From: Squalus acanthias
Taxonomy: Eukaryota
Assembly: GCA_030390025.1 (NCBI GenBank)
Contig: CM059427.1
Location: 188,046,001-188,110,000 of the forward strand
Direction of reading: 5' to 3'
Length of the DNA stretch: 64,000 nucleotides
Every line of letters begins with the position of its first letter. Position 1 is the stretch's first letter. The position numbers and the translations under genes were made by a program. Positions 5,766 to 63,500 of the stretch are shown here, one piece after another. The notes under the pieces are model-generated. The model saw nothing but the letters and a program-made list of their open reading frames with translations, was not told the DNA's origin and ran no database searches.

Positions 5766-7204
5766 AGTGGTTTCTCAAAAGATGTTGGAGGTGGTGCAGG
5801 AGAAGCAGAAATGCTGTGGAATGAGCCAAGGGAGCAAGAAGCCATAAAATCAGACTGGAAAAGTGCTGTCATCAGAGGCGAGTTTCAGTCCCAGAACACT
5901 AATTGAGCACGGGCATCCCACACCTCTGAAATCAAGTGGACAATCATGGGAAAATCGCAACATTTTGAAACCTATCAGTGGAGGCGAGTTTCAGACACAC
6001 CCAAACTGAAACCCGCCTCCATCTCACCTCCAGTGGGAAAATCGCCCCCTTGGATCCGGACACTTGGATCCTGGCACTTTCCGGGTACTTGTTTGTTCAG
6101 CTGAGCGCTGCTGTCGGACTAATTTGCTTCTTGAGGGGAGTGAGCGGAGGAAGCATTTAAAAATACTTTGTGCTGCTTTTCAGTAATTCAGTAACCAGTG
6201 CACAGATGTCACTCGACATTTATAGAACTGATTTGCACCATTCCAAAGCCTTTTGGGATGAACTGAGGTCATGAAAGGCGCTATATCAATACAAATACTT
6301 TCCTTTTCATTTTACAGGCTTTGGTAATATTTTCATGTGTTTACAGCTTTTCATAAGTTTTGATGAATTTCTGCTTTGGAATAAATTTTAAAAGTCTCGA
6401 TAATCATTTGTTTGCTAATTGTACTTGTTATCAATTGTAATAAAAAGGTTGGTTTGGAATGGAATGGGTTGGTATTTCCTATTGAACCGCACTCTCATAA
6501 TGGGGAAGAGTAACTTTCCTTTTGAGTTCTATTCTCCGAGCCATTCATGGAAATACATCCAAGGCAATGGATCTGTGGGCTCGATAAACCGCTTCGAATC
6601 CAGCACAGTACATAATAAAATGTATCTGCTAAAACTTGAAATTATTCTGTTTGAAAGCCTCCTGTGATCACAGAAACATCTACTCACTTTAGTGGGGTCC
6701 GGAACAGAAACAATTGATCAAGGTTTCCCCAGCGGTTTGATGAGTTTATCCGCAAAACTAACAACAACTTACGATTATATAACGCCTTTAACATAGAGAA
6801 ACCTCCCAAGGTGCAGCGAAGAAGATATTAGGAGGGCTGACCAAAATCTTGTTCAAAGAGATGGGTTCCAATAGAGATGGAGAGGCGGAGGGATTTAGGG
6901 AAGGAATTCCAAGCATGAATTTGCGCCTCCTGCTATTTTGGATAATTAGGTTGTGCTGGTGGCCGGAGTGCATGACGTGTTTTGCAGGACCCCTTCTCAA
7001 TTTCCGAATCCCGCAACGCTTCATATTAAAAGAACACAGGCTGCTCCCCCACCCTCCCAATTGGCATCGCTCCCCCCGATCGGCATGGCTTCCCCTGACC
7101 AGGCCTCCAATCGACCCTCTTTCCCCCCCTTCCGACCCAGATCGCTCTCGATCCCCCCACCCCGGCCAGACGCCCAATCGCCCCACTACCCGCTACCAAC
7201 CCCT

Positions 7205-20162: not shown

Positions 20163-20482
20163 ATGTTAAGATAACCCCAGCGTTTTGGAGGAAGGCCTTC
20201 TGAGTCCGGCGGTACAGGCCGCACTACACCCAGGTGTACAAGCCATCCAGAGGCCACAAAAGGCAGAGGCTAAACAGGATTTAACCTGGCCGTCCGGAGA
20301 CGGGTGGCAAATGTACAGAGTTTTACGTTTTAAGTCATTGCAGTTTTGGTAGTTATGGGTTATCATTAGTTTAGTTATTTGTAGAGTTTTAAGTTTAAGG
20401 GCTCGATTAATTATCCAGCCAGAGAACCTTTCTGGGACATGGATATATGTTTTGTGTGTGCCCCTACAGAAAGGAATTCCGA

Positions 20483-41575: not shown

Positions 41576-41663
41576 ATGAGGCTACGATTTTTCTGCAACA
41601 AAATGCCAGCTGGTTTGATGTTCAGTTTCTTGGTGTTTCTACATCCGTCTGTTTTCACACAAA
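41576..41663 (+). CDS. IgSF gene leader exon (MRLRFFCNKMPAGLMFSFLVFLHPSVFTQ)
   Basis: Acceptor ttcttacAG at 41553, hydrophobic signal peptide, donor A|GTAAGT at 41664, phase 1 matching the next exon. Confidence 0.7.
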
Positions 41664-41793
41664 GTAAGTGCCTTATTTCCACCAATCACAGTCATATTGT
41701 TTTACTTTATCAGAGTGTTTAATGAATTCACCCAGCTAGTATTCAGCAAGCAAGTAAGGTCTTTATTTTCCTGTCCCTGCTCCTTTAAACAGG

Positions 41794-42510
41794 GGGTAGA
41801 GTTTCTGCTTTGGGCACAATCGGCGATTCCGGTGCAAATTGCACACAAAATTGCGACCGTTTTGAAATTTTCTTTTACTCGAGTTTCCGCTCAAACTCAT
41901 TTGCATATCGGCAAAAGCAAAATCTGTCCTGAAGCAGCGCAATTGGGCAACGTTTTAAAACATCATTTTACTTTTTAAAGTTGCTTTAAAAAGTATTCCT
42001 TGATATATTTAAGAGAGGTAACTTGGTGCAGTTTGATTAATACAGCTGGAAATGGGTTTATCAAAAAATAAGCATTTTAAATCACAGTATCAAAGCCAGC
42101 TGTGAGTAATCCGATTATAAATTATTAAAATTTGGGGAACAGTTGTGAGTTCCTTATAAAAAATAATCATTCAAAATCATTCAAAAACATACCTATTAAT
42201 GTCCTTACGCACAAAAGTTCCAGCTTATTTTTTGGAGCCTCCTCGAAGGCCTGCAAATGAGCGCAATTATTGGAAACTCCCAATGCTGATTAATTCATCC
42301 TGGGGGCGTGGCCAGTTTTGTGGGCGGGGCCAGCTTCCAGCGCGATGATTTTAAAAGTCACGCAAAAGATCGTGGAAACTATAAATCTGTTGAACGCAAT
42401 TTCGGCTTAAAATTCCGCGATCTTTTGCACCGTTTACGCCGATATCGGGGAAATCGTGCAGAAAAAAACAGCGTGATCTAGCGGAAACGCCAGGCCGCTG
42501 TGTAAGTTCA
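41794..42510 (+). mobile_element. Non-autonomous repeat family copy
   Basis: Homologous to 57320-58400 and 28886-29470. Confidence 0.7.
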
Positions 42511-44892
42511 CTTTTCAGAGTCCAACAGTGGAACAACTTAATAAAATGAAAAATGTTAGCAGATTTCTCATTGCTCTTCAATTCCTTTTCCCGATCTATC
42601 TATTAATCTCTCTATCTGTCGATACATCTACTCTTGTATGTAGCAAACGTCCATCAGAGCATTTTCTGTTTTCTATGATATGTTATATTTGATCAATCAA
42701 CAGCTGAACAGATTGCATGTGGTATAGAATGGGTCAAAAGTAAAAACAATATTAAAATGTTAATAAGCGTTAAAATTCAGAATTATTGAGAATCATTTTT
42801 TGTGTTCGAGGCTGTGCAACATATAAAAGTTACATTTGGGTAAAACATCATTTGAAAAGGTTTGAAGGTTTGTCGCTGATCCTCACTTCGGGTCACATCT
42901 TGGTTTAGTGTCCAAAGATGTTTAAACATCACTGTGAATACAGTGTGCACAGAGCCATTGTGGTTTTGGTAATTGTGATGTGAGCTGGTATTTAATCAAG
43001 ACTTACAGACACATGGGATTTACTGCTTTAGATCACTTCCCTTGTGAAAATGTAGATAAAATAATGGTTACAATGAGGATTAATTGACTGTTACCCTTGA
43101 AATGAAGGAAGATAATGATTCAAAGGTGGAAATGTAGTTCAGGGAATGGTAACGATGAACTATTGACTGAATGATGTGACCACTGTCACCAGAGGCCACC
43201 TGGAAGTATCCAAATGCATTAACGTTAAATGTCACCGTCACAGCCACAGTTGTCACCTTTCACAGATAAGGCAAAGCACCTGGTGGAAAGAGGCTGCAAG
43301 TCAGGTTCCAAGAGCTGGTTTATCTCTGTCACGGTGTCTCATCAGACAAGGGGGGAGGATGCAGGAACTGCCTGATCGCTGCCCACCTCAGGAAACCCCG
43401 TCACAGGACAAACGGGGTGGAGACCCGACGTAACCGTATCCTGCACCAATTTCACTCCCCAAGTTCCACCTTGATAATTCCCCCTGCAGACCAGGAGTCG
43501 GGAGGAGATTTGGAGCCTTTATTTTCAGTAACAAGAAATTTAGCCATGACCTCTCTTTTTATTTTGATTACTTTTTGTAATAATAATGTATATTACATAG
43601 AATTACATAGAATTTTACAGCACAGAAACATCTCTCTCATGTGCCTATCTATGTTCAGAAAGCTCTGCTAATAGATACACAGAATATCTACTGGAAGTGT
43701 TCTGTTTTTCCCTATAACCGTGCCTGCAGTGAAGGTGACATGATACAGTGCTTTCTCCTCATGTATTAGTGCTTCATTGTAACCTTCTCTGGACTGAACT
43801 CCTCAATGAACGAGCTTTGCCAGCTTCTTGGGATTGTAATGGGAGAGGATTTTGCTCTCCCTTCTTGCCCAATTTTGGATAGATTGTGGTCGGCAGGGGC
43901 AGAAAGTGGGGATGGGGATCCGGCGGGCTGCTCCCTGCAGATTGTCATCACTTCACTGAATATATGGACCCAAATATGGAGAGATTTATTCAAATTGCGT
44001 GGAGTGGCCAAGTGTTATCAGATGTTACATTCACCGTCATTACCGCCATAACAATGCTGGAACACAAGGGACAGCAGCATGTTCCCGGCATCTAGTGTTG
44101 TGTTGGCTTGCGGGAGTGGATTTCAATTTCAAATATCTATCTGAAGCAAAGCAATTGATCATGATCAAAGCAATTTGATCCCTCCCTGTCCCAGGTGGGT
44201 CCCTCAGATCAAAGCACGAGTCCTGCTGGGAGCCCACAATAATTATGGAAATTATGCTGATCTCAGGAAATTCCCCAGGGATCACGGTTTGGGAAGACAG
44301 GCGGGCACGGAGTCTGTCACACTGACCTACAGGCAGATTATGGCCAAATGGAAAATCCTGCCTCCCTTTGTTATCGGTAATCCTGTGGGTTGCCTGGTCA
44401 CTGGTGGTCCAGGAGAACCAACAACGTACTGGGCATTGCACAAGAGGAGGGGAGCTCACTTGTAGAGATCGCTGACCTGATTTATGAGCCTGAAGTGTTA
44501 TGACTGCACCAGTACTGTATTCAGTTTTAGGAGAATACTGATTATTGTGATGGTATTTCAGATTTCTTAACAATGTCGGAGTAACGATTCCCCTTCCACA
44601 CTCCCAGTAAATGCTGGAAATACGGATTGTGAAATTGGACACTGGAGGCCCACAAGGTCAGAGTGCAGTGGCAGAAATTCACCCTCTAATGTCCTAAAGT
44701 ATCACTGGATTAGGCCAGATTATTCCAGACAGTCAGCTCTTCACCGGGGTGTGTATGTGTCATTGCTGAATCCATTGTATATAAACAATATGACTGTAAA
44801 TAAATGAAGTCCAATATTAATCATTACAAACATGGGATTAAGGAGTTACAGTTTAAATATTTAAATACTTACATTGTTCCTCTTTCTAACAG

Positions 44893-45234
44893 GAAACACA
44901 AATCATATTTATTTTTTGGATAAGCGAGATGACATTCCATTAAAAGGACCGGACAATCCTGGGAATGGCCCTGTTGTCTGGGAATGGAAACCACACTCAG
45001 GGCAAGAAATCCAGCGGCTGGTTACTTTTCACAAAGGGGGTTCGGGCTTGTGGGACGCACAATGGAACGATCACTTTAGCAACAGCGACTTGTACTGGAT
45101 AGTAGAATGGAGTCCTTGGACCATTAATCTGAGAATTAGAAAACCCACATTTAAATTTGCGGGATCGTTCATCTTGACTCAAACACAGCCGAGTAATAAA
45201 ATCCTGAAACAGTATGAAATATTTGGGATCAAAG
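44893..45234 (+). CDS. IgSF gene exon, domain 1 (V-like, no cysteines)
   Basis: Acceptor tctttctaacAG, donor G|GTGAGT, phase 1-1, open frame. 'IPLKGP...VVWEW...INLRIRKPTFKFAGSFILT' follows V-set spacing. Confidence 0.75.
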
Positions 45235-46129
45235 GTGAGTGGGACAAAGTCTAGAAAAGGTTCAATAAAATGATTCTCAGTGAATAATTTCATGTGTAAC
45301 GATGAGAGATTGCCAGGATCACGTGAGATTTATATCACCCAGTGCAGAGAGCATCTCTCATTAAAACAACCAGGGGAAAGATTTTGTTCATTGTTTCTCC
45401 TGAAATGGTCAACATGAGTAAAAACATTTTGACAATTTCACCAGAAATAGCAAACCGAGTAATCTACCCCACAGAGAGTATTATGGTCTGTACACTGGCA
45501 CACTCTCTGTCAGATGTACTGAATTATGTTACCAAACCAATAGATCACTTGAAGTAATAAGCCTGAGCGCGATGGGACAAGAATAAGATTGGCCAGAATC
45601 ACTGCTCCTGATTGCTGTCCAGTGAACCTGTTAGATGTGTCACTTGGTTGAGGTCCCACAGGATGTCAAGTGTCCCTGGAACTTGTACTATGCCAAGGAG
45701 TTAACGCCTTCAGGAAAGCAAGAAGAACATGGCAGAGAAAAAGAGATACATTGGGGGGAATTTTAACCCCAAAAAATGTTTGGCTTGGGGTCGGGTGGGA
45801 GGTTCCAGAGTTAAAAATCTGAATCCTGGCCCCAACTCGCCTCCAACCCGCCCACTTCTAGTTTTAACGGAGGTGGGACGGGGGTGGGGGGGCAGCTAAC
45901 CTGCTCGCAGGTGGTGAGTTCACACTTTAAATATTCTAATGGGGTTGGGTGCCTCATAGTGATCCACAATTTTAAATTTAACTGTAGGCTCGGGGAACCC
46001 GCCAGCTAAAGGGTGATGAGGACAGCTGGACCCAGGGTTTCTGCCTCGCCACCTGCCCACTATCGGTCCCCTCCCCCCGACCCTTTTGATCTCCCCCAAA
46101 CTACCCCTGAGGCCTCCAATACCCCCACA

Positions 46130-46325
46130 TGAGATCTCCGATCTCTGATCCCCCCTCCAGCCTTCCGACCTCCCCCCTCCGGCCTTCCAACTTCCCCCCT
46201 GCAGCTTTCCAACCCTCCTCCGATCTCCGATACTCCCTCTGGCCTTCTGACCTCCCGATCTCTCCCCTCCGGCCTTCTGACCTCCCCACTCGGACCTCCG
46301 ATACCCCACTCCTGCCTTCCAACAA
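46130..46325 (+). repeat. Degenerate C/T-rich minisatellite (CCGGCCTTCTGACCTCCCC-like)
   Basis: Visible imperfect tandem units. Confidence 0.7.
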
Positions 46326-48119
46326 CCCCACCATTCCCTCACTCCCTGCTCTCTGTGGCCTGGTGCCCCAGGCCTTTACATTCGAGCCTTTCCTTCTGGC
46401 TGGCTGCGGGAGGGAAACAGAGATTTAAAATGTTGATCAGGCCCTGTCGCTAAATTCAGTCTCGCCACTCCCTATCTGCCTCCAAAGCCTTTCCTCCATC
46501 TACAAGGCACAAGTAAGGACTGTGATGGAATACTCTCCACTTGCCTGGATGAGTGCAGCTCCAACAACACTCAAGAAGCTCGACACCATCCAGGACAAAG
46601 CAGCCCGTTTGATTGTCACCCCATCCACCACCTTAAAAGTTCACTCCCTGCTCCACCAGCGCACTGTGGCTGCAGTGTGTACCATCTACAAGATGCACTG
46701 CAGCAACTCGCCAAGCCTTCTTCGGCAGCACCTCCCAAACCTGCGAACTCTACCACCTAGAAGGACAAGGGCAGCAGGCGCATGCGAGCACCACCACCTC
46801 CAAGTTCCCCTCCAAGTCACACACCATCCTGACTGAGAAGTATATCTCCGATCCTTCATCATTGCTGGGTCAATCTCCTAGAACTCACTACCTAACAGCA
46901 CTGTGGGAGTACCTACACCACACGGACTGCAGGGGTTCAAGAAGGCAGCTCACCACCACCTTCTCAAGGGCAATTAGGGATGGGCAATAAATGTTGGCCT
47001 TGCCAGTGACGCCCAGATCCCATAAAATTCCGGCCATTGTATCTACTCAAAAATATTTAAAAAGCTTTAGTATAAATATATCAAAATCTTTAGTTTCTGC
47101 CAACTAAGGATGCTGCTCAACAGCTGCACTTTCTGGTTGATTGATGTGTGTAACATCTAAATGAGGCTGAGGTCACTGTCATATGTACTTGATACAAAAT
47201 ATAATCCAATCCTGAAATGTCGAAGTGGCCAAAATATCATCGTGACTGTACTGGGCCTGGACAATTGCTCCTGAGGTGTTAGCCCAAACTGCACCAGAAT
47301 GTGTTGACCATAATAGAAAGTCAACTCATTTACATTTATTAGTTGCACTCATGGTACATAGTGCATGGTACACGGGGAATGTCACATGGGTCGGGCACCA
47401 GAGTGTTGGGCGCCAGCAGCTAATTGATGCCCACCATTGTTTTGGCCTGACGTTGGAATGAAAGTCCCTGTTGAAGATTTGATTCTTACTTGTCATGTTG
47501 TAGGTGGGACTGAAAGTCAGGGTGGGCATTTTTAGAACAAGCCTCTCCTGAAGTGCCATTCCTCATGGACGCTCAATGATTGGAGCCCTGCTCAGGAGCA
47601 TTTTGGGAGCCCACTAATTTAAATAACGTAATGACTTTTGACGTGGATTTTGTGCACAGGCTCCCAGTGCGTGTGTTGGGTGGTCTTACTGAAGTGTGCG
47701 AGGCACATTGAGAACAGAGTGGGACTGGAGCCTTCTCCATGTCTGATAATATGGGCGCTACATTTCCATCACACCCTCCTCTGGTGAGATTCCATCACCT
47801 GTCCATTGTGGTGTCGGCTTCCACAAATGTCATCCAAACCATGTAACCTTAACCTGACCCCGGATACTCCAGCAGGGTCAGGGGTAAAGGTCATCGGCCG
47901 CACTCTGGCTCACTTACGCTGGCAGAGCTGGACCGAGAATTTTCAGGCTCACTGTGTTATTCTACTGATAAAATGCACTTGTGTGTAATCTGGCCTGACT
48001 CTTTAATGCAGCAAGGTACAAGTGCTGATGATGGGCACATCCTACGGTCAGTTAGAACCTAATCATTGGATTGTACATGTCACTACTTACACTAAATCTT
48101 ATTGATATGTTTTTCACAG

Positions 48120-48389
48120 TTGAGTCAAGTCCACAGAGTGCTGTGGTGGGCAGTGACGTTACACTCAGCTGTACCATCTCCAAACTCTCAGATACAGTCA
48201 GTCTTCAATGGAAACAGAGAGACTCATCTCAGCAGAACAGGAGCAACACTGATCAGATCCGACTAAATAACACAGTCTATCTGATAGTCAAACATGTTGC
48301 AGTAGAGGATAAGGAGTTGTACGCGTGTGAAGTGCAGGAAGATGGATCCATTATTCTCACAGGAAAAGCAGATTTTTCTGTGGCCCAGG
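48120..48389 (+). CDS. IgSF gene exon, domain 2 (C2-like)
   Basis: Acceptor ttttcacAG, donor G|GTAAGT, phase 1-1; 'GSDVTLSC...LQW...YLIVKHVAVEDKELYACEV'. Confidence 0.9.
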
Positions 48390-49331
48390 GTAAGTGCAGT
48401 TACCTCACAGTAGATATTAAAGAGTTACTAATATAAAACTGTTACATATAAAGTGGAGTCATACATGTCAACCATCAGCACTTCATGCTTACAGTCAGCA
48501 TGTGGGGGCCTGGTGCACATATCAGCATTGAACAAAAAACTGGCCTCTCGCCCCTCAATGCCACTTCTAACCGAGTTCTGCTGCTATTTCAAGTGATTCC
48601 AGCTGCTGCATACTCTAGGCTTCAAATAAGCATTCAGCTGGAGCAGGACTGAGGGAAGCGGGAAGGGCAGGGAATCAATGGCCATGAACGGAGAGGGAAG
48701 GATGGAAATGATGGCAATGTAGAGGAGAGATGGTGGGCAGAGGGAAATGACAGAGGCTGGGAGTGGGGCTTTGGGGGAGGAAGAGGGGAAAAGCTGAGAG
48801 TGGAACTTTGGAGTAGAAGATAAGAATTTGCATTTGTGTGAAGTGTAGAAAAAAGACTCTGTTATTAAAATAGCATCAAAACTATTGATGTGGATCAGGG
48901 TAAGGCCAGAACTACCTTACAGTAGATATTAAATAGTTACTGAAATAACACTGTTACACACAAAGTACAGGGAGCACAGAGACAGCATATGCTTTTACTA
49001 CAGACTGGGACCTTATTTTCTCTTTGAAACATTGGTGTAAATATAACATTGCAATACAGTGGGCAAATATCAACAACCAGGTCTTGATGGATCTGACAAT
49101 AAATAGCAAAAGAGTTGAAGGTGGACAACAACATTCTCACACAGCTCATCAGTTACCAAAACACAGAGACAATTCTTTTCTAAATATGGTTCACTTTATT
49201 CACTGCAAGGGCACAGCATTAAAGTCCATCCCTGAATATCTATTCAGTGCTCTTCCAATACACACACATATGGCCGGAGTTTTCCAGGGTGGTAGTGGGG
49301 GCGATTGGTGGCGGGTCGGGTGGGAAAGTTA

Positions 49332-52095
49332 TTTATAGAATCATAGAAATTTACAGCACAGAATGAGGGCATTCAGCCCATCTTGTCCGTGCCGGCCGAC
49401 ATAGCTATCTACCCTAATCCCACTTTCCGGCATTTGGTCCGTAGCCTTGGAGTTTACGGCACTTCAAGTGCATTTCCAAGTACATTTTAAATGTGGTGAG
49501 GGTCTCTGCCTCTACCACCCTTTCAGGCAGTGAGTTCCTCTGGGTGAAAAGAATTCTCCACAAATCCCCTCCAAACTTCCGACCAATTACTTTAAATCTA
49601 AGCCCCTGGTTATTGATTCTGCTGCTAAGGGAAATAGATCCTTCCGCTAAGGGAAATAGGTCCTTCCTATCCACTCTATCTAGGCCTCTTATAATTTTAT
49701 ACACCTCAATTAGGTCTCCCCTCAGCCTCCTCTGTTCCAAAGAAAACAACCCCAGCCTATCCAATCTTTCCTCATAGCTAAAATTCCCCAGCCCAGGCAA
49801 CATCCTCGTAAATCTCCTGTGCACCCCCTCTAGTGCAATCACATCCTTCCTGTAATGTGGTGACCAGAACTGCACGCAGTATTCTAGCTGCGATTTAACT
49901 AGTGTTTTATACAGTTCAAGCATAACCTCCCTGCTCTTATATTCTATGCCTCGACTAATAAAGGCAAGTATCCTGGATGCCTTCTTAACACCTTATTTAC
50001 CTCTCCTGCTACCTTCAGGGATCTGTGGACATGCACTCAAAGGTCCCTCTGATCTTCTACACTTCTCAGTGTCCTACCATTTATAATGTATTCCCTTGCC
50101 TTGTTAGCCCTCCCCAAATGCTTTACCTCACACTTCTCCAGATTGAATTCCATTTGCCACTGTTCTGCCCACCTGACCAGTCCATTGATATCTTCCTGCA
50201 GTCTGCAGCTTTCTTCTTCATTATCAACCACACGGCCAATTTTTGTATCATCTGCAAATTTCTTAATCATACTTCCTACATTCAAGTCCAAATCATTGCT
50301 ATTTACCACAAAAAACAAAGGACTGAGTACTGAGCGCTGCGGAACCCCACTGGAACCAGCCTTCCAGTCACAAAAACACCCTTCGACCATTACCCTTTGT
50401 TTCCTGCCTCTGAGCTAATTTTGGATCCAACTTGCCACTTTGCTTTGGATCCCATGGGCTTTTACTTTCATGACTAGTCTGCCATGCGGGACCTTATCAA
50501 AAGCCTTGCTAAAATCTATATAGACAACATCAAATGCACTACTGTCATCGACCCTCCTTGTTACCTCCTCAAAAATTTCAACCAAGTTACTCAGATACGA
50601 CCTTCCCTTAACAAATCCATGCTGACTCTCCCTGATTAATTTGTGTCTTTCTAAATGAAGATTTATCCTGTCCCTCAGAAGTTTTTCCAATAATTTTCCC
50701 ACCACCGAGGTTAGGCTGATTGGTCTGTAATTACTCGGTCTATCCCTTTCACCCTTTTTAAACAACAGTACCACGTTAGCAGTCCTCCAGTCCTCTGGCA
50801 TACACCTGTAGCCAGAGAGGATTGGAAAATGATGGTCAGAGCCTCTGCTATTTCTTCTCTTACTTCTCTTAACAGTCTGGGATACATTTTATCCGGGCCT
50901 GGGGATTTATTCACTTTCAAAGATGTTAAACCCCTTAATACTTCCTCTTTCACTATGTTTATTTCATCTCATATTTCACACTCCTCCTCCCTGATTGCAA
51001 TTTCTGCATCGTCCCTCTCTTTTGTGAAAACAGACACAAAGTATTCATTAAGAATCATACCCATGTCTTCCGCTTCCACACACAGGTTACCTTTATGGTC
51101 CCTAATAGGCGCTACTCTTTCTTTAGTTATCCTCTTGCTCTTAATGTATTTATAAAACATCTTTGGGTTTTCCTTGATTTTACTTGCCAATATTTTTTCA
51201 TGCCCTCTCTTTGCTTTCCTAATTTACTTTTTAATTGCACCCCTGCACTTTCGATACTCCTCTGGGGTTTCTGCAGTATTGAGCCCTGTCATAAGCTTCC
51301 CTTTGTTTCTTTAACCTTCCCTGTATGCCCCTTGACATTCAGGGAGCTCTAGATTTGTTAGTCCCACCCTTTTCTTTAAGGGAACTACTTGCTCTGAACC
51401 CTCACTGTCTCCTCCTTGAATGCCTCCCACTGCTCTGACACTGATTTACCTTCAAGTTTCTGCCTCCAGTCCACTTTGGCTAAATCACTTCTCAGCTTAG
51501 TAAAATTAGCTTTTCCCCAATTGAGAACTTTTATTCCTGGTCCATCCTTGTCCTTTTCCATAACTACTCTAAATCTTACTGAATTATGATCACTACCACC
51601 GATATGCTCTCCCACTGATACCCTTTCCACCTGCCCAGCTTCATTCCCTAAAACTAGGTCCAGAACCACACCCTCTCTTATTGGGCTTGCTATGTACTGG
51701 CTACAAAAGTTCTCCTGAATGCATTTTAAGAATTCTGCTCCCTCTATGCCTTTCACACTAATTCTATCCCAGTTAATATTAAGGAAGTTGAAATCCCCTA
51801 CGATTACTGCCCTATTTTTGCATGTCTCAGAAATTTGCCTACATATTTGCTCTTCTATCTCCCTCTGACTGTTCGAAGGTCTATAGTACACTCCCAGCAG
51901 TGTGATTGCCCCTTTTTTGTTTTGCAGTTCAACCCATATGGCTTCATTTGATGATCCTTCTAAGATATCCTCCCTCCTCACAGCTGTAATTGAATCTTTG
52001 ATCAATATTGCGACCTCCCTCCTTTTGTATCCCCCTCTCTATCTTGTCTGAAAACCCTGTAACCAGGAATGTTGAGCTGCCAGTCCTGCCCTTCT
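49332..52095 (-). mobile_element. CR1 LINE ORF2 (EN + RT), frameshifted
   Basis: ORFs 51385-52005 (endonuclease: 'VYYRP', 'GDFN', 'SDHN'), 50415-50801, 50037-50390 ('FADDTK'), 49414-49923; tail repeat at about 49335. Confidence 0.95.
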
Positions 52096-52989
52096 TTCAG
52101 CCATGTCTTATTTTTGGGAGTGGTTTGGGAACCTGCTGTCATCCCGCCCCCATCGCCTTTCCCCCAGGCGCCTCTGTCATCGCGGAGCCGACCCGACTGG
52201 TAGAGGTGGGCGGCCCAATTGAGATGATTAACAGTTAGTTGTCAGACCATTAACAGTCTTTTTTAACGTTCTTTGTAAATTTAACTGCATGGCCAAGGCA
52301 ACCACATTGCTCGGGAAGCACGTCTGTCAACCTGAGGCGGGAGTTCCATGGTCATTGCTCCAGCTGAATTCTTGACAGCATCTAATGTACAGTAAAAGCT
52401 TCCACCTGACAGATGATCACTTTCCTCAGGCAGAAACTGTTGCTCAGTCCATTTCCAGCACAGATTCTGTAGGCTGCAAAAGTTTCCAGCAAAGTCTCAA
52501 TCCAGTCTCACCTCATTGGTAGAACTCTCTCACCATTGACAGAATGCTTCTGTTATCTGTACTTCACCTGCCATCTATTCCATCAACAGGGGTGCCATTT
52601 ATACTGTCTCAACTTGGTCCTCAGAATAGGACCACAATGAGCCCCAACATCAGCAGCACCAGGCACACCAGCAGCACCAACAACAACACCAACCTTCTCC
52701 ACAATCACCTGATGGTGCACAGGACACCGGGCATCAGCACCCGACGACATTGCTGTCCAGGAGGGCAGGGATGGCCTCATCATGGCCAGATTTAGTTAGG
52801 TTTACGCTGTACACCTATATGGCAGCCACATGATGCGCCAGGTTGGCACCACCCCACACCAACACCACAAAACATCCCTACAATGACCAAGCCATGATCT
52901 TATTGAATGGTGGAGCAGGCGCGAGGGACCGTATGGCCTATTCCTGCTCATATTTCTTATGTTCTTATAAGCCATTCATTTCATACTCA

Positions 52990-54310
52990 TCACCATTGCG
53001 GGGGGGTACAGTTGTGTTTCACCATTCACTGCAACTCACTCAGTCACTTCCAAAGGTGCACACAAATCTTTTGAAGAATGGAACGTGATGTAAATGAAGA
53101 TTTTTATGTTTGACATCACACTAACAGAAACTTTACATAAACATTGGATAATGGTTACCCTTGTGTGTTGTTAGTTGGTATGATTGCACTAGGATGAGGG
53201 TGAGTGTGAGGGATGGCTAGTGAGATTGGCATGTGAAAAGGTAGATAGATAGAGAGGGATAGGTGGAGGTGCAAAATATGTTGGTGTGAGTAAGGATACA
53301 TAGATACATAGATACATAGAACAGTACAGCACAGTACAGGCCCTTCGGCCCTCGATGTTGTGCCGAGCATTGTCCGAGACCAAGATCAAGCTATCACACT
53401 CCCTATCACTCTGGTGTGCTCCATGTGCTTATCCAATAGCAGCTTGAAAGTTCCTAAAGTGTCCGACTCCACTATCACAGCAGGCAGTCCATTCCACACC
53501 CCAACCACTCTCTGAGTAAAGAATCTACCTCGGACATCCCTTCTATATCTCCCCCCATGCACCTTATAGTTATGCCCCCTTGTAACAACTGCCTCTACCC
53601 GAGGAAATAGTCTCTGAACATCCACTCTATCTATCCCCCTCATCATCTTATAAACCTCTATTAAGTCGCCTCTCAACCTCCTCCGCTCTAAAGAGAAAAG
53701 CCCCAACTCCCTCAATCTTTCCTCATAAGACCTCCCCCCCAAACCAGGCAGCATCCTGGTAAATCTCCTTTGCACTCTTTCCAATGCTTCCACGTCCTTC
53801 CTATAGTGAGGTGACCAGAACTGCACACAATATTCCAAATGTGGTCTCACCAAGGTCCTGTACAGATGCAGCATAACCTCACGGTTCTTAAACTCAAACC
53901 CTCTGTTAATAAACGCCAACACACCATAGGCCTTCTTTACTGCTCTATCCACTTGAGTGGCAACCTTCAGAGATCTGTGGATATGAACCCCCAGATCCCT
54001 CTGCTCCTCCACGTTCCTCAGAACCCTGCCGTTGACCCTGTAATCCTTATTCAAATTTGCCCTACCAAAATGAATCACCTCGCACAGGAGTATGTTAGGG
54101 AAGGCTGAGTGCTGGGGATGTGATGAGAGGCACAGCAGGATGAGGTTGAGTGTGGCTTTGTACTAACATTTCCTGATCTAATGAGATCATTGAAATGTTT
54201 GCGGCACTGCACCCAGGTCCGCCTGAACACATCCCTGCTTGTGCCCTCCTCTGCAATCTGCAACCAGGCTGTTTTGGTCTACTGGGGAGGTCACTTTGAA
54301 GGCAGACTGT
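52990..54310 (-). mobile_element. Harbinger Myb-like remnant interrupted by a CR1
   Basis: 53050-53200 resembles 1-170; 54075-54263 reads 'RTWVQCRKHFNDL'. Confidence 0.6.
53297..54084 (-). mobile_element. Young 5'-truncated CR1 LINE
   Basis: Open ORF 53386-54078 and (ACATAGAT)n tail; nearly identical to 59020-59805. Confidence 0.95.
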
Positions 54311-56938
54311 AAAAAGCCTTTGGTGAGGCTTGACCAGAAATGAATTGTTAAACTGTTTTATCTCACAGCGAGTGATAAATAATGAACACGGTACACTTTG
54401 CCACACCAGTGGGTCAACGATTGATTTAAACAATTGGGCGAGAAAGTTGTCGGTGTCACCGCAACTGGAGTTAAGGGCCGCTGAAAATGGCCGCAGAGCT
54501 AATGAGAATAAATTTGTCTGGGGGGCTGGAGATTGGTGGCGCAGCACTAACCTTCCGTGCAGCGCCCCCTGGTGGCGTTAGTGGAGACCTCCGAGGTGAA
54601 GTTCCCGTCCTGACGTGGTGTTCGAGCTTCGCACAGCCTCTGGGAGCGAGGAATTGTGGGCCATTAAAAGGGCTGTGAATTAAAGGGGCCACGTACTCGG
54701 AACTGATACAAATTAAAATGCAGTGAAAAAATGCAGTTTTCAGCCCTTACTGCCTGTCAAAAAAAAAATATAACATTAAAAAGAAGTCCCAAATGTGATT
54801 GTTCAGTTCTTAAAGCTGAATTCCCTTCAGAACCTCAAAAAATAGGAAATTTGCTTCAGCACTAACACAAATGGCTCAGCAAGCCAGGGAAGGGGCACCC
54901 AGCATCTCGCACGCAGCACTCCAGCTTTGTGCAGGGGGTCAACACTGCAAGACAGCTCCTCTACCCACAGGGGTCAGGAGACCCTCCAGAAAGTAGGATG
55001 AGGAACTACATCACCGAGGCAACACTGCCAGCAGTGTCGCCCCCACCACCTGGCTCCAGTGCCGAAGGAAGCTTCATGACCTCAGACCACTGGTCAAGGT
55101 CAGTAAATGCATCTTCAAAAGCCCTCTCCTACCAACTGCAGCAGCAGCCTCACACATTGCTCAATGCACGACTCCCCTCTCAATCACTCACCTACCAACA
55201 ATCTGCACCAATCACGAGGCACATCTCCGATTCCTAGCCTCACCTCACCCCTTGGAGGAGACGGTGTAGGCCATTCTTGGCAAAGGCATGGCTGAGCCCT
55301 TGGCCAGCGGTGCGGCTGAAAGGATACAAGATGCTGGTATCCTCACTTGTTAGCCTCCTTCTGGCATGCACCTCATGCTTTCTTGCCCTCCCATTACCAC
55401 AACTCCACACTTGTCCCATCCTCATTTCACAAACCCAAGAAATGCAGCCTGCCCAGCCAGTGGTTGGCCAAGAAGAGGGAGGGCGGAGGAGGAGGAGGAG
55501 GAGGTGATGATGATGATGATTTGACACTCCCAGCCACCAGCCCCTTAAGGCCAACCAGCAAGGCCTTTTGCAGTGTCCCCCACTGAAAGTCAGAAGCTTT
55601 CCACCAGCCATGCTGCAGCCACTGGGTGGCACTGCGTCACATCAGTAGGATAGGCAAAGGCATGCATAAGGGTAATGAGTTGATTTCTTGATGTCAAGAT
55701 GATGTTGTGATGCTCAATAACAGATGGAAGGAAAGTTGTGGAAACGGGAATTGGGATTGTGGTCACTGGTACCGCAGGCGGATGATTCTATCCCGGATAT
55801 CCCAGCCAGAACGGGACTGTCTGGGTTGTATCCTTCCTTCGGATGCTGTAAATCTGAAATGCAGGAAATACTCAGCTGGTCAGGCAGCATCTCGACCTGA
55901 GACGTGAACTCTGTTTCTCTCTCCACGGATGTTGCCTGACCTGCTGTGTATTTGCAGCATTTCCTGACTTTTCAGAGTCCTTCCTTTACCATCCGAGGGC
56001 TTGCAAGCATCCAGCAGCACTCCCTACACACTTAACAAGCTTTTAACATCGAATGCAGCAAGCCACTACTTCAATAAAATAAAAAAACACAGTCCAAAAG
56101 CTTAAATCCAAATTTACCTGAATGATGTATGTGCCACTTTAAGAGGTGCTGACATTGCCACTGTCAGCCTGCTTGCAAGCCAGGTTTCACTGGCGTGCTT
56201 AGGACCCCGCACTGAATTCAGCGCTAGGGTCGAAGTTCTGAGTGATGATGTTCAGTCGACATTGCATTTTTTTCTCCAGGGCGCTGCCAGTCACCGACAA
56301 CGCAAAGCAAACGTCGAAAATGGAGGACGCTGCAGGACCCGCCACCAGCTGGTGAAAGAGCGGTGGCCGCCGCCCTTTCGCCATTTTTTGCCAGTAACGG
56401 GTGGCGTAAAGCCCCCGAATTTTTCACCCATTAACTCCTAACTACCCTCCTACATGATAAACCTCTGAGCCTGGACCAGGCTTGCCCTTGCAACTTTCTG
56501 TATCAAACCAGACTGACGATGCACCCTTTGATGGACCTGCCTGTTTGCTTCTGTCTGTCTCTTTGTTTTATCTCCTTCTGTTAACAACCTGAGGGGACCA
56601 GATGTGCCCAACACAATGGGTATGAGGCGTTTATTGACAATCGATTGCTGAGACAGTTTAACAAATTGATTATCTACACTCCATGGGGAAACAACATCAC
56701 ATTGACGGGGGCCATGTTTGGAGCAGATGGACTTTGTAGCACAACCCGACGTTTAAACAATAGGCAGCCTGGGCCGGCAGCCAGTGTATCCGGGTCCCAG
56801 CCGATTTCCCTGTCCCAATGCTGCACTCCCAGCTGGCTTATGCCAGGAGGGCGCTGAATGGCCCTGTGGGATTTCAGAACATCTGTATCTCAGCAGCTAT
56901 ATAAATATAACACCTTGTTTCCTGTCTCTCTATTTCAG

Positions 56939-57277
56939 ATTTACGCAATAAGAGTTACACACTTTATCGGTCAGGCACAGATCACAGTGAACTCTCCCTG
57001 ATTTGTGAAGCTAAATCTGAATTCAGTAAAACTAAATGGACTTGGAGGTCACGTCATTTTCAGAATCAAGAGAAAGAAATAGCTTCTACTTTCAGATCTA
57101 AGCCTATCGAAGTAAACAGGACCTATTTTGGGAGTCGACTTGTGCCCACAGTGGGAAATCTTAATGGCAGGAACTTCAGTGTGAGGATTGTCCCCGTACT
57201 GTTTGAAGATGCTGGAGTTTACACTTGTTCTCTGGGGTTATTGAATTATGTGACCATTAAACTAATCACAGTTAAAG
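56939..57277 (+). CDS. IgSF gene exon, domain 3 (V-set)
   Basis: Acceptor tatttcAG, donor G|GTAGG, phase 1-1; 'ELSLICE...WTW...NFSVRIVPVLFEDAGVYTC'. Confidence 0.92.
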
Positions 57278-57319
57278 GTAGGAGACAGAATGCTGCAGGT
57301 GTTTTCAATGATAAAGTTG

Positions 57320-58400
57320 GGTAGAGTTTCCGCTTTGGGCACAATCGGCGATTCCGGCACAAATTGCGCCCAAAACTGCGCCCGTTTTGAAAAGTGTTTC
57401 CCCCCCACCCCCCGAGGTTCCACTCAAACTCATTTGCATATCACCAAACGCGAAATCTGCCCTGAACCAACGCAATTGGACAGTGATTTAAAACCTAATT
57501 TCTTTTTGCTAATATTGCTTTAAAAATATTCTAGGCTACATTTAAGAATGGTAACTTGGAGCAGTTTGCTTAATACAGCTGAAAGTGGGTTTGCCACAAA
57601 AAATAAGCATTTTAAATCACAGTATCGATCCGCCACCTGTGAGTAACTGATTTTAACTGACTGAAAATGACATAAAAAAATATACAGAACTATTTTCCAG
57701 TTAGATTGGGGCACAGTAGTCAGTTCCTTAGTAAATTGAAAAAAAATAATTTCAAATCCTTTCAAAACGTACGTATTCGTGTCCTTGCGACCAAAAGATC
57801 CAGCTTCATTTTTGGAGCCTCCTCGTCGGCCTGCAAACGGGCGCAATTAGTGGAAACTCCCGATGGTGATTGGTTCACCCTGTGGGCGGGGCCAATTTTG
57901 TGCGCAGGGCCAGTTTTATAGGCGGGGTCAGTTTTGTGGGCGGGGGCCAGTTGTGTGGGCGTGGCCAGTTTTGTGGGCGGGGGCCAGTTTTGTGGGCAGG
58001 GCCAGTTTTGTGGGCGTGGCCAGTTTTGTGGGCGGGGACCAGTTTTGTGGGCAGGGCCAGTTTTGTGGGCGTGGCCAGTTTTGCGGGCGGGGGCCAGTTT
58101 TGTGGGCAGGCCAGTTTTGTAGGTGGGCCCAGTTTTGTGGGCATGGCCAGTTTTGTAGGCAGGGCCAGCTTTTTGGGCGGGGACAGTTTTGTGGGCGGGG
58201 CCAGTTTTATAGGCGGGGCCAGTTTTATAGGCGGGGCCTGCTTCTAGCGAGACGTCTTTAAAACTAGCGCAAAAGATCGCGGAAAATCAAGTTGCATTGA
58301 ATGCAATTTGCGCTTAAAATTCTGCTACTGTTTGCGTTGGTTACGCCGATATCGGGCGAATTGTACCGAAAAAAACAACACAATGAGGTGCAAACTCCAG
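57320..58400 (+). mobile_element. Non-autonomous repeat family copy containing an expanded minisatellite
   Basis: Homologous to 41794-42510. Confidence 0.75.
57881..58238 (+). repeat. 21-bp minisatellite (GGCCAGTTTTGTGGGCGG-like), about 17 copies
   Basis: Directly visible tandem array. Confidence 0.95.
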
Positions 58401-58446
58401 GACATTCTTTAAAATCTAAATGATTTTCTTGTTTACACATTCACAG

Positions 58447-58710
58447 CTGAACCATCTGATGCAGTGACTGAGGGAGACACCGTTACCCTGACCTGCTCTG
58501 TCTCTGATGTCACTGAATCAATGAGACTTGTTTGGATCAGTAGCGATGGCAAAACTGTTGAAGAGAAAACTTTTAAGGACCAGAAGCAGGAAGAGGATTT
58601 GTTACGGCTGATTATTCAAAAAGCTGATCGAGACAGAAGGAACTGGACATGTGTTTTGTTTCATCAAAACACGCCCAGCATTTTAATTCCATATTATCTG
58701 AAGGTTAACA
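58447..58710 (+). CDS. IgSF gene exon, domain 4 (C2-like with WxC motif)
   Basis: Acceptor tcacAG at 58446, donor A|GTAAGT at 58711, phase 1-1; 'EGDTVTLTC...LVW...LRLIIQKADRDRRNWTCVL'. Confidence 0.9.
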
Positions 58711-60086
58711 GTAAGTGTCTCACATTTTGCTCATTGTAACCTCCATAGAAATTTCTTGCTGCTCTTTTGTTATGATAACCTTTTACTTTTCATATTCTAT
58801 TGCACTCCACATTACTCAGAGTTTAATCAGAGGTGTTGACATACAAACAGTTTAACATCAAAAGTCAAACTATACAGCTCAAAGCAATGGAAGAAGAAAT
58901 ACAGTGCGGTGTTGGGTCATAGAAACATACATAGAACAGTGGAAGGAGCGCACGTCATCCCAAGCAAACCACCCACCCGCCCCTTCAACCACCGTCTGCC
59001 CCACCTGTGACAGAGAATGTACATAGAACATAGAACATAGAACAGTACAGCACAGTACAGGCCCTTCGGCCCTCGATGTTGTGCCGAGCATTGTCCGAGA
59101 CCAAGATCAAGCTATCACACTCCCTATCACTCTGGTGTGCTCCATGTGCTTATCCAATAACCGCTTGAAAGTTCCTAAAGTGTCCGACTCCACTATCACA
59201 GCAGGCAGTCCATTTCACACCCCAACCACTCTCTGAGTAAAGAATCTACCTCGGACATCCCTTCTATATCTCCCCCCATGCACCTTATAGTTATGCCCCC
59301 TTGTAACAGCTGCCTCTACCCGAGGAAATAGTCTCTGAACATCCACTCTATCTATCCCCCTCATCATCTTATAAACCTCTATTAAGTCGCCTCTCATCCT
59401 CCTCCGCTCTAAAGAGAAAAGCCCCAACTCCCTCAATCTTTCCTCATAAGACCTCCCCCCCAAACCAGGCAGCATCCTGGTAAATCTCCTTTGCACTCTT
59501 TCCAATGCTTCCACGTCCTTCCTATAGTGAGGTGACCAGAACTGCACACAATATTCCAAATGTGGTCTCACCAAGGTCCTGTACAGTTGCAGCATAACCT
59601 CACGGTTCTTAAACTCAAACCCTCTGTTAATAAACGCCAACACACCATAGGCCTTCTTTACTGCTCTATCCACTTGAGTGGCAACCTTCAGAGATCTGTG
59701 GATATGAACCCCCAGATCCCTCTGCTCCTCCACGTTCCTCAGAACCCTGCCGTTGACCCTGTAATCCTTATTCAAATTTGCCCTACCAAAATGAATCACC
59801 TCGCACTTATCAGGGTTAAATTCCATCTGCCATTTTTCGGCCCAGCTCTGCATCCTATCAATGTCTCTTTGCAGCCTACAACAGCCCTCCACCTCATCCA
59901 CTACTCCACCAATCTTGGTGTCATCAGCAAATTTACTGATCCACCCTTCAGTCCCCTCCTCCAAGTCATTGATAAAAATCACAAACAGCAGAGGACCCAG
60001 CACCGACCCCTGTGGCACACCGCTGGTAACTGGTCTCCAGTCCGAAAATGTTCCATCCACCACCACCCTCTGCCTTCTATGAGATA

Positions 60087-62761
60087 TGATGCGGAGATGC
60101 CGGTGTTGGACTGGGGTGGACAAAATTGAGAGGTCGCACAACACCAGGTTATAGTCCAACAGTTTTATTTGAAATCACAAGCTTTCGGAGCTATCGATTT
60201 GCTCCTTCCTCAGGTGAAGTAAATTAGATACAGAATCTCCAAAGCATATATAGATGGAAAACAAAGAATGTGTACTTTACAATTGCAGACCAATAAATTA
60301 AATCATCCTGACTATCTGCCGAGGTGTGATAAAGTTAATTAAGTCAGCCAGGAAGGTACCACATCAAAGACATAGCAAGATACAACTGAGACAATGAGGT
60401 GTAGTCGCAGGGGTTCTAACGTGTCAAAAGCTGCCGTCTGTATGTAAAACGAAAAGCTTTAACATTTTTTTACTTTTTTACTGGGAAAATTTTTACTTTT
60501 TTTACTGGGAATCACATCTGTGAACAAGCTAACGACGACTCGAGTCCGGATCACGTCATGTATCGTGACATAAACCCAAGATCCCGATTGAGACCGTCTT
60601 CATGAGTGCGCAACTTGGCTATCAGTTTCTGCTCGATGATTTTGCGTTGTCGTGTGTTTCTAAGGTTGCCTTGGAGAACGCTTACCCGCAGATCCGAGGC
60701 TGAATGTCCTTGACTGCTGAAGTGTTCCCCGACTGGGAGGTAACAATCCTGCCTGGCGATTGTTGCGCGGTGCTCGTTCATACGTTGTCTCAGTGTCTGC
60801 ATGGTCTCGCCGATGTACCATGCCGCGGTGCATTCTTTCCTGCAACGTATGAGGTAGACAACGTTGGCCGAGTCACATGAGTATGTACCATGTACCTGGT
60901 GGGTAGTGTCCTCACGTGTGATGGTGGTGTCTGTGTTGATGATCTGGCATGTCTTGCAGAGTTTGCCATGGCAGGGTTGTGTGGTGTCGTGGTCGCTGTT
61001 ATCCTGAAAGCTGGGTAATTTGCTGCGAACGATGGTACTTCTGAGGTTAGGCGGCTGTTTGAAGGCAAGTAGTGGAGGCATGGGGATGGCCTTAGCGAGG
61101 TGTTTGTCGTCATCGATGACATGTTGAAGGCTGCGAAGAACATGGCGTAGTTTCTCCGCTCCGGGGAAGTACTGGACGACGTAGGGTACCCTGTTGGTTG
61201 TGTCCCGTGTTTGCCTTCTGAGGAGGTCTATGCGATTTTTCGCTGTGGCCCGTCGGAACTGTCGATCGATGAGTCGAGCGTCATATCCCGTTCTTACGAG
61301 GGCGTTTTTCAGCGTCCGTAGGTGTCCATCGCGTTCCTCCTCGTCTGAGCAGATCCTGTGTATTCGCAGGGCTTGTCCATAGGGGATGGCTTCTTTAACA
61401 TGGTTAGGGTGGAAGCTGGAGAAGTGGAGCATCGTGAGGTTGTCCGTGGGCTTGCGGTAGAGTGAAGTGCTGAGGTGTCCGTCTTTGATGGAGATTCGTG
61501 TGTCCAGGAATGAGACTGATTCTGAGGAGTAGTCCATGGTGAGTTTGATGGTGGGATGGAACTTGTTTATGTTATCGTGTAGTCTTTTCAGTGATCCTTC
61601 GCCATGGGTCCAAAGGAAGAAAATGTCGTCGATGTATCTGGTATACAGCGTTGGCTGGAGGTCCTGTGCAGCGAAGAAGTCTTGCTCGAACTTGTGCATG
61701 AAGATGTTGGCGTATTGGGGTGCGAATTTGGTCCCCATGGCTGTTCCGTGTGTTTGGGTAAAAAAATGGTTGTCGAAGGTGAAGACATTGTGGTCAAGGA
61801 TGAAGCGGATGAGTTGTAGGATGGCGTCTGGAGATTGGCTGTTGTTGATGTTGAGTACTGAGGCTGTTGCAGCGATGCCGTCATCGTGGGGGATACTGGT
61901 GTAGAGTGCCGATACGTCCATCGTGGCAAGGAGTGTTCCTGGTTCAACTGGTCCGTGGGTGCTGAGTTTCTGTAAGAAGTCTGTAGTGTCGCGACAGAAG
62001 CTGGGGGTTCCCTGTACGATGGGTTTCAGAATGCCCTCGACGTATCCAGAGAGGTTCTCACACAGGGTTCCATTGCCTGATACGATAGGACGTCTGAGAC
62101 AACGTATGAACGAGCACCGCGCAACAATCGCCAGGCAGGATTGTTACCTCCCAGTCGGGGAACACTTCAGCAGTCAAGGACATTCAGCCTCGGATCTGCG
62201 GGTAAGCGTTCTCCAAGGCAACCTTAGAAACACACGACAACGCAAAATCATCGAGCAGAAACTGATAGCCAAGTTGCGCACTCATGAAGACGGTCTCAAT
62301 CGGGATCTTGGGTTTATGTCACGATACATGACGTGATCCGGACTCGAGTCGTCGTTAGCTTGTTCACAGATGTGATTCCCAGTAAAAAAAGTAAAAATTT
62401 TCCCAGTAAAAAAGTAAAAAAATGTTAAAGCTTTTCGTTTTACATACAGACGGCAGCTTTTGACACGTTAGAACCCCTGCGACTACACCTCATTGTCTCA
62501 GTTGTATCTTGCTATGTCTTTGATGTGGTACCTTCCTGGCTGACTTAATTAACTTTATCACACCTCGGCAGATAGTCAGGATGATTTAATTTATTGGTCT
62601 GCAATTGTAAAGTACACATTCTTTGTTTTCCATCTATATATGCTTTGGAGATTCTGTATCTAATTTACTTCACCTGAGGAAGGAGCAAATCGATAGCTCC
62701 GAAAGCTTGTGATTTCAAATAAAACTGTTGGACTATAACCTGGTGTTGTGCGACCTCTCAA
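60087..62761 (-). mobile_element. Penelope-like retroelement with about 670-bp inverted terminal arm
   Basis: TSD TTCTATGAGATA (60075-60086, 62762-62773). 62094-62763 is the reverse complement of 60124-60793. Confidence 0.93.
60551..62093 (-). CDS. Penelope-like RT + GIY-YIG endonuclease (5'-truncated, open frame)
   Basis: 'DVSALYTSI', 'GTAMG', 'RYIDD', 'FLD', 'YRKPT', 'NVVYLIRC...YIGET...RMNEH', 'GLN'. Confidence 0.93.
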
Positions 62762-63268
62762 TTCTATGAGATAGCCAGTTACTTATCCAATCGGCCAAAT
62801 TTCCCTCTATCCCACAACTCCTTACTTTCTTCATGAGCCGACCATGGGGAACCTTATCAAACGCCTTACTAAAATCCATGTATACGACATCAACTGCTCT
62901 ACCTTCATCTACACACTTAGTTACCTCCTCAAAGAATTCAATCAAATTTGTTAGGCAAGACTTACCCTTCACGAATCCGTGTTGACTATCCCTGATTAAG
63001 TTGCCCCTTTCCAAATGGTCATAAATCCTATCCCTCAGGACCTTTTCCATTATCTTACCAACCACCGAAGTAAGACTAACCGGCCTATAATTACCAGGGT
63101 CATTCCTATTTCCTTTCTTGAAGAGAGGAACAACATTCGCCACTCTCCAGTCCTCTGGCACCATTCCCGTGGACAGTGAGGACCCAAAGATCAAAGCCAG
63201 ACCCATTGTCAGGCAGATATAGATGGAATACATCATTCGAGGTACAATTATGGGGAAGGAGAGAGATG

Positions 63269-63500
63269 CCCTGACCTGCTCTGTCTCTGATGTCACTGAA
63301 TCAATGACATTTGTTTGGATCAGAAACTAAAGCAACATTGTTGAAGAGAAATCGTTCAATGGATGGAATTGGGAAGGGAAATCATTGAGACTGATTATTC
63401 AGAAAGCTGACAGAGACAGAGGGAACTGGATATGTGTTTTGTTTTATCAAAACAGCCCCAGGTTTTACCCCTGTACTATCTGGAGCCCAGTGCTAAGTGA
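63269..63500 (+). pseudogene. Decayed duplicate of the domain-4 Ig exon
   Basis: Matches 58488-58710 ('LTCSVSDVTESM', 'LRLIIQKADRDRGNWICVL') but lacks the 5' end and acceptor, has an in-frame TAA at 63328-63330 and a 3' frameshift. Confidence 0.85.

Follow-up and report, generated by a model that had tools for sequence, protein, structure and literature searches.

About 30 neighbouring shark genes for CD4-shaped surface proteins, likely paired on/off immune receptors

The window analysed here, a stretch of 64,000 nucleotides of Squalus acanthias DNA, carries on its forward strand a leader exon (41576..41663) followed by exons for four Ig domains: D1 (44893..45234, 113 aa), D2 (48120..48389, 89 aa), D3 (56939..57277, 112 aa), and D4 (58447..58710, 87 aa). 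AG/GT sites throughout, phase-1 junctions, and a spliced open frame of 434 aa (leader and D1 to D4) bear out the preliminary description of a leader plus four phase-1 Ig exons, in which long (V) and short (C2) domains alternate. The transmembrane exon (G000:C3:188114400-188114503) and the exon for a cysteine-free tail of 35 aa (C3:188115517-188115624) lie 4.4-5.6 kb past the window end; together, the seven exons have canonical splice sites and an open frame of 504 aa. The conserved translation start is probably the second ATG of the leader (41603): of four further leader copies read, two are interrupted by a stop after the first ATG but ahead of the second, and another is frameshifted in that interval. 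The forward strand also holds a deletion junction with a 7-base microhomology (54290..54296), where intron 2 of an eight-domain gene is fused to intron 6, and a further, broken copy of the final C2 exon (63268..63486), with its 5' end missing, a stop, and a 1-base gap. This broken exon is of the type that the Lys-type neighbour carries, and its presence indicates a rearranged locus. Outside the gene, the forward strand bears an isolated, diverged copy of the family's transmembrane exon (6047..6148), with Gln where Lys would stand. We found neither a hydrophobic-type membrane exon nor an ITIM exon from D4 to the next gene.

D1 and D3 are IgV domains, and D2 and D4 are C2-type domains. The translated exons contain the features noticed earlier: no cysteine in D1, YxC (YAC) in D2, and WxC (WTC) in D4. 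The lack of an intron splitting D1 also stands as an observation, but not as a difference from CD4 and LAG-3, since the shark versions of these genes likewise lack that intron (PMC10768021 section 3.2). D2, D3, and D4 match Pfam Ig families, whereas D1, the domain that varies among paralogues, has no match. Searching Pfam, PDB sequences, and the ESM Atlas with D1 alone yielded no useful match, and it was placed by fold only: its AlphaFold model (pLDDT 81.5) matches IgV domains, and D1 is thus predicted to be a cysteine-free IgV. In a Foldseek search with a family model, the nine best matches were LAG-3 and CD4, and LAG-3 was also the best non-titin match of a broad family profile among PDB sequences; profile matches further included CEA, pIgR, and NCAM. 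In the model, strands run continuously over both V-C2 junctions. An ESM Atlas search with a four-domain relative returned generic V-set clusters with LAG3 third at 0.91, which we treat as a lead only. Judged by these models, the closest solved folds to the family are LAG-3 and CD4.

The gene belongs to a tandem cluster of about 32 units over 3.1 Mb, beside an ARAP3-like gene. With split fragments counted, 57 of 60 D3 matches and 60 of 65 D1 matches fall within C3:186.4-189.5 Mb; a satellite copy lies at C26:26.27 Mb, 4.4 Mb from class I-like matches. No identifiable single-copy gene was found in the 100 kb to the left of the cluster, and no description of the family was found in the literature searched. 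The units carry either four Ig domains (15 of 32) or eight, and they have two kinds of end. One combines a lysine in the membrane segment with a short tail; the other is a hydrophobic segment followed, where its tail was read, by two ITIMs. Tails were read in three units of either kind, and the remaining hydrophobic-type units are assumed to bear ITIMs. The membrane exon of the window gene has 17 close copies (14 with Lys, 3 with Ile) and 5 diverged ones. The hydrophobic type has 16 copies, 15 of them on C3, and one was traced to a tail whose motifs read IHYGSI and VIYAQI. At the DNA level, a Lys neighbour and an ITIM neighbour share 85-99% identity across their ectodomain exons. For D1, dN/dS is 1.10 among 24 distinct copies, with dN exceeding dS in only 78% of 60 bootstraps (14 sequences), and 0.90 in its most variable stretch; the D1 ratio is thus not significant and does not establish positive selection. 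For the D7 type, dN/dS is 0.68 (10 copies).

Comparison with the neighbours shows that the four-domain form of the window gene is secondary. Its D2 is 89-98% identical to D2 of the eight-domain neighbours, its D3 is 92-95% identical to their D7 but 70% identical to their D3, and its D4 matches D8 of the ITIM-tailed neighbour at 98% identity. The window copy is an eight-domain ancestor minus domains 3-6, deleted at the 7-base microhomology. A twin copy (C3:188.56-188.60 Mb) with 99.5% identity over 27.5 kb may be an uncollapsed allele. D1 frameshifts occur among the two next neighbours checked, one of them in the ITIM-tailed neighbour; part of the cluster is therefore decaying or misassembled.

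The end of the window gene is of the activating type, but with Ile in place of Lys, and it has no ITIMs. The Ile codon, ATT instead of AAA, is common to three copies, one of them diverged, and is therefore not a base-calling error. Because of this substitution, the window copy is likely a non-signalling decoy or decaying. We give a functional decoy an even chance; decay is the less probable outcome, and signalling in some other way is less probable still. A related possibility, which we consider rather unlikely, is that the family is one of paired receptors but this copy was recently crippled and is becoming a pseudogene. The deletion, the broken extra exon, the lost Lys, and the frameshifted neighbours speak for it. 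However, the frame stays open through the seven exons and their splice sites are canonical, the Ile change is retained in the diverged third copy, and four-domain forms are common in the cluster, the D1-D2-D7-D8 form also being annotated in catsharks (P0051, P0052).

Relatives were found in sharks, rays, chimaera, bichir, sturgeons, bowfin, and eels, none of them with a family name. Among 120 database relatives, 51 have an ITIM-type tail, 29 have a Lys segment, none has both, and 40 have neither or are truncated; no ITAM occurs in any tail read among them. In sturgeons, a Lys form occurs along with an ITIM form homologous to it, and the bowfin relative has Lys in its membrane segment. In the tree, from which P0136 was left out (it has no anchor motif) and in which several far rows are long-branched, Lys and ITIM forms from one species or genus pair together at six starred forks. 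CD4, LAG-3, DICP, and G6F-like sequences are absent from this tree because a search for database relatives of D1 of the genome's CD4 found none. The earlier suggestion of a separate, lineage-specific paralogue thus holds in that the gene is separate; it is not a lone paralogue, however, but one of about 32 clustered units, and its family extends to ray-finned fishes.

Two kinds of end on similar ectodomains are the arrangement seen in paired activating and inhibitory receptors, and the shark cluster is very probably such a family. That the window copy within it is a likely non-signalling decoy, lacking both the membrane lysine and ITIMs, is also probable, though less so. The exon structure, the cluster, the two end types, and the Lys-to-Ile change were observed directly, and the steps of the pairing mechanism follow the established biology of paired receptors (KIR, LILR, NITR, and DICP). 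By this analogy, the near-identical ectodomains would bind one shared ligand; ITIM members would recruit SHP phosphatases and inhibit, whereas Lys members would activate by way of an acidic adaptor, for example DAP12, with which they would pair. Although unable to signal, the window copy would still engage the ligand by its D1 and thereby be a competitor of its sibling receptors. A pathogen or MHC-type ligand is our guess.

That the gene is instead a shark CD4 or LAG-3 co-receptor acting on LCK is very hard to reconcile with the data. The preliminary description of a CD4/LAG-3-like gene was right about structural kinship, as the V-C2-V-C2 order, WxC in D4, the continuous strands, and the top fold matches show, but not about identity. 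CD4 carries WxC in both D2 and D4 (PMC10768021 section 3.6), whereas the window gene has it in D4 only. The transmembrane and tail exons, which the preliminary description proposed to seek downstream, were located there, and the tail has no Cx(C/H) and no FxxL, nor (F/Y)xxL(D/E) in general; among the 80 relatives with a typed end, none has Cx(C/H) and two have a loose (F/Y)xxL(D/E) match. The proposed test of synteny with the CD4 locus failed as well: the genome's own CD4, with tail YCPH, is on C3283, and its domains are only 17-34% identical to the like-numbered window domains (its D3 coincides with an assembly gap). The window gene is therefore neither a single intact gene downstream of LAG-3 nor directly upstream of CD4 but part of a multicopy cluster, and we reject CD4/LAG-3 identity. 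LAG-3 was not found in the assembly: its tail pattern had no genome matches, and the first 83 kb of C3283 contained no LAG-3 exon. TPI and MLF, which we take to be CD4-region genes, are on C2106 and on C5 and C7, respectively, with none on C3; this is weak evidence because the TPI contig is 15 kb. CD4 is expressed most highly in the thymus.

A closer contender, though still an unlikely one, is that the family is a cartilaginous-fish branch of the DICPs or shares their ancestor. DICPs, found in ray-finned fish and coelacanth, have V and C2 units, single or doubled, and clustered inhibitory, activating, and motif-less forms (bioRxiv 2021.06.11.448072); the satellite copy on C26 also lies on the same contig as class I-like matches. 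On the other hand, DICPs carry C23 and C104 in D1 and D2, whereas the window D1 has neither; none of the 50 MHC class I matches is on C3; the D1 profile matched bowfin, sturgeon, and eel proteins, of which none of the 20 looked up was named DICP; and activating DICPs of bowfin use Arg, whereas the bowfin relative of the shark family uses Lys. We think it improbable that these are adhesion molecules or Ig-binding (Fc/pIgR-like) receptors and not sensors of foreign or altered-self ligands. CEA, pIgR, and NCAM among the profile matches, and eight-domain rods long enough to span cells, fit that explanation, but the two kinds of end, the homogenised ectodomains, and the variability of D1 suit receptor pairs, and with an Ig ligand the mechanism would remain that of paired receptors.

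In cartilaginous fishes, few clustered activating/inhibitory receptor families are known by which NK-like or myeloid cells could sense self and non-self. The cluster supplies about 30 concrete candidates; they include both signalling ends, are conserved as far as sturgeons and bowfin, and have a CD4/LAG-3-like fold that informs the origin of those co-receptors. It also advises caution: V-C2-V-C2 order together with WxC does not by itself make a shark gene CD4 or LAG-3. More tentatively, the family may be an ancient third branch of the CD4/LAG-3 structural type, paired before the shark/bony fish split, with a KIR/LILR-like cluster in sharks reading MHC or pathogen ligands, and lost in tetrapods and most teleosts. 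If so, this family would share one V-C2 receptor stock with CD4 and LAG-3, which would have survived from it in single copy.

Compared with known systems, the window gene shares with CD4 and LAG-3 the V-C2-V-C2 rod with strands continuous across the V-C2 junctions, WxC in the last C2 domain, an unsplit D1 exon, and phase-1 exons, and these are its nearest solved folds. It differs in its D1 without both cysteines and its D2 with YxC, and the cluster differs in being multicopy at another locus, with four- and eight-domain forms and Lys or ITIM ends in place of a Cx(C/H)/FxxL tail. DICPs, compared by description only, are likewise clustered, with doublable V and C2 units and inhibitory, activating, and motif-less forms; however, they often have extra cysteines besides C23 and C104 and are MHC-linked, whereas the window D1 is cysteine-free and no MHC class I match shares a contig with the main shark cluster. 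The G6F-like receptors of teleosts have a four-domain layout and a CD4-like ectodomain, and as Ig-type receptors they resemble the shark family; they are reported to carry an ITAM (Ohashi 2010), which the tail of the window gene, like those read among the relatives, lacks. KIR, LILR, and CHIR are paired receptor clusters, and with these and NITR the shark cluster shares tandem expansion, charged-segment activators next to ITIM inhibitors, and homogenised ectodomains, although their domain build is different and the analogy is functional only.

The window gene is real, and it is neither CD4 nor LAG-3. Its leader exon (41576-41663) and four Ig exons, D1 (44893-45234), D2 (48120-48389), D3 (56939-57277), and D4 (58447-58710), lie where the preliminary description placed them, are bounded by AG/GT sites with phase-1 junctions throughout, and splice into an open frame of 434 aa. 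D2, D3, and D4 matched Pfam Ig families, and D1 matched none; because its model (pLDDT 81.5) matches IgV domains, among them those of MPZL1, 2B4, and NITR10 (TM 0.67-0.75), D1 is, as modeled, a cysteine-free V domain. The window spans C3:188046001-188110000 of the genome. In the 200 kb searched beyond the window end, a membrane exon was found 4.4 kb and a tail exon 5.5 kb past that end; all seven exons together encode 504 aa. The tail is short, lacks tyrosine, and contains neither Cx(C/H) nor (F/Y)xxL(D/E). Between the window gene and the next gene there is no second membrane exon and no ITIM exon. Orphan leader-exon copies, one of them inverted, also lie there (L011-L014; approximately 92300 and 99700 in window-extended numbering).

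Shark CD4 and LAG-3, neither of which has the D1 intron, are told apart by locus and tail motifs (PMC10768021). Searched with a pattern from the shark CD4 tail, the genome gave a single hit; it is on contig C3283, where a gene at 83100-97100 (L116-L117) has canonical Ig exons (D1, D2, and D4, with D3 falling within an assembly gap) and a tail exon with the motif YCPH. Its like-numbered domains share 17% (D1), 34% (D2), and 29% (D4) identity with those of the window gene. LAG-3 was not found in the assembly, nor was it seen in the 83 kb upstream of this CD4 gene. The cluster containing the window gene, on contig C3, is bounded on the right by a minus-strand ARAP-type gene (189.55-189.62 Mb, L100-L106) whose RhoGAP exon best matches ARAP3, and none of the 50 MHC class I hits in the genome is on C3. 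Synteny with the CD4 locus fails, and with the genome's CD4 on C3283 and neither tail motif in the window gene, its assignment to CD4 or LAG-3 is rejected.

D1 and D3 have at least 65 and at least 60 genome matches, counts that include split fragments, with 60 and 57 of them, respectively, in C3:186.4-189.5 Mb. When V-type and membrane exons were placed in order, approximately 32 units proved to have a membrane exon, of which 17 have eight domains and 15 have four, and there are partial or diverged pieces besides; C2 exons were mapped in the fully read 264 kb only. The window-gene type of end occurs in 17 close copies (lysine at mid-membrane in 14, isoleucine in 3) and in 5 further diverged copies with glutamine. 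The second type, fully hydrophobic, occurs in 16 copies (15 on C3), one of which was traced to a tail with IHYGSI and VIYAQI. Each of the 120 listed database relatives comes from a shark or ray and bears no more specific a name than "uncharacterized," "obscurin-like," "CD276 homolog," or similar. An ITIM-type tail is present in 51 of them and a lysine segment in 29, never the two together; the other 40 have neither or are truncated. No ITAM was found in the tails read. A lysine neighbor and an ITIM neighbor of the window gene are 85-99% identical in DNA, exon by exon, and in a tree of 42 rows, lysine and ITIM forms from one species or genus pair at six starred forks.

D1 is the most variable domain: across 24 distinct copies, a position takes up to 7 different residues. 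Its dN/dS is 1.10, not significantly above 1, and 26 of 30 copies are ungapped and open. A distant family member (C3:173.796-173.802 Mb, L085-L086) lies 13 Mb from the cluster, with 42-47% identity in D2-D4 and no WxC in its last C2 domain. Satellite copies were also seen at C26:26.26-26.28 Mb, on C1512, and at C9:7.336 Mb; one exon of the C26 copy contains a stop, and 4.4 Mb from this copy there is a series of approximately 17 MHC class I-like hits (C26:30.7-38.4 Mb).

Comparison with the eight-domain neighbors, whose last V and C2 domains are D7 and D8, shows that the window gene lost domains 3-6 by deletion, because its D2-D3 intron tracks the neighbors' intron 2 to approximately 54296 and intron 6 from 54290, the two joining at a 7-base microhomology. 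Its D1 and D2 are 81-98% identical to the neighbors' D1 and D2, its D3 is 92-95% identical to their D7, and its D4 is 98% identical to D8 of the ITIM neighbor. From a broken second C2 exon 3' of D4 (63268-63486), the DNA is collinear with the lysine neighbor through the membrane and tail exons. The lysine codon AAA is replaced by ATT in the window gene, in a diverged third copy, and in a twin that lies at a distance of 0.48 Mb, is 99.5% identical, and may be an uncollapsed allele. The D1-D2-D7-D8 build also occurs outside this genome, in catshark P0051, which has the lysine.

The window also holds LINE-type reverse transcriptase fragments (13433-14995, 49417-52038, 53389-54162, and 59218-63326), 99% identical copies on either side of D3-D4 (53297-54085 and 59020-59806), and a 670-base inverted pair (60124-60793 and 62094-62763). 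A plus-strand retrovirus-like element (17912-22761) has three frames. One is gag-like and includes a zinc knuckle (Pfam E 8e-4); another contains a protease-like DTGA motif and no longer makes coding sense after it; the env-like one spans 585 aa and weakly matches an Ig domain (E 0.028) ahead of a furin-like site. An Ig-like domain within an env-like frame is unusual.

A profile built from 11 D1-type exons matched 43 representatives among 1.84 billion sequences. Of the 20 looked up, 17 were named, none as a known family, and came from chimaera, sharks, rays, sturgeons, bowfin, bonefish, and eels; two of the three unnamed were noise-like, and this search of limited depth returned no tetrapod among the 20. 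Another search extended the range to bichir and paddlefish. Sturgeon P0173 carries a homolog of the shark ITIM tail, and the GYLxVK segment of the shark lysine forms is also present in sturgeon P0146 and bowfin P0142; thus, judging by sequence, the lysine/ITIM pairing likely predates the shark/bony-fish split. In eel relatives P0125 and P0140 the four-domain unit is repeated, with as many as six D1-type domains over 2139 aa.

The model obtained for a catshark member with four domains (pLDDT 78) has strands that are predicted to run unbroken through both V-C2 junctions, as in CD4 and LAG-3 (PMC10768021, section 3.6). Its best nine Foldseek matches were LAG-3 and CD4 (E 4e-18 to 6e-14), with CD4 D1D2 at TM 0.71-0.79 by target. 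A broad family profile placed LAG-3 top after titin (3e-13), with CD4 at 1e-8; a shark-only profile placed CEA slightly ahead of LAG-3. Because common domain order and length favor such matches, they speak for likeness only; common descent with CD4/LAG-3 is what we infer. In the literature searched, neither this CD4-shaped shark cluster family nor any of six locus tags from it was described, DICP/G6F-like subscription papers lying outside the search; under the terms tried, the family was not mentioned in the consulted parts of PMC3964593 (including one supplement file) or in the ten supplements of PMC10768021. Prior mention is possible. The window gene leads into an apparently undescribed, ancient family of probable paired receptors with a CD4-like fold.

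It is established for paired receptors that ITIM forms inhibit and that those with a charged segment rely on an adaptor, such as DAP12, to activate. By analogy, ITIM members of the shark cluster would inhibit and lysine members would activate by way of an adaptor of this kind, whereas the window copy, because its activating-type end lacks the charge, would bind ligand and not signal. Against so tidy a picture stand the D1 frameshifts in two neighbors of the window gene and the reading of cluster tails in three units only. Among DICPs and NITRs, likewise, ITIM forms inhibit, charged-segment forms activate via an adaptor, e.g., DAP12, and motif-less forms occur (bioRxiv 2021.06.11.448072).
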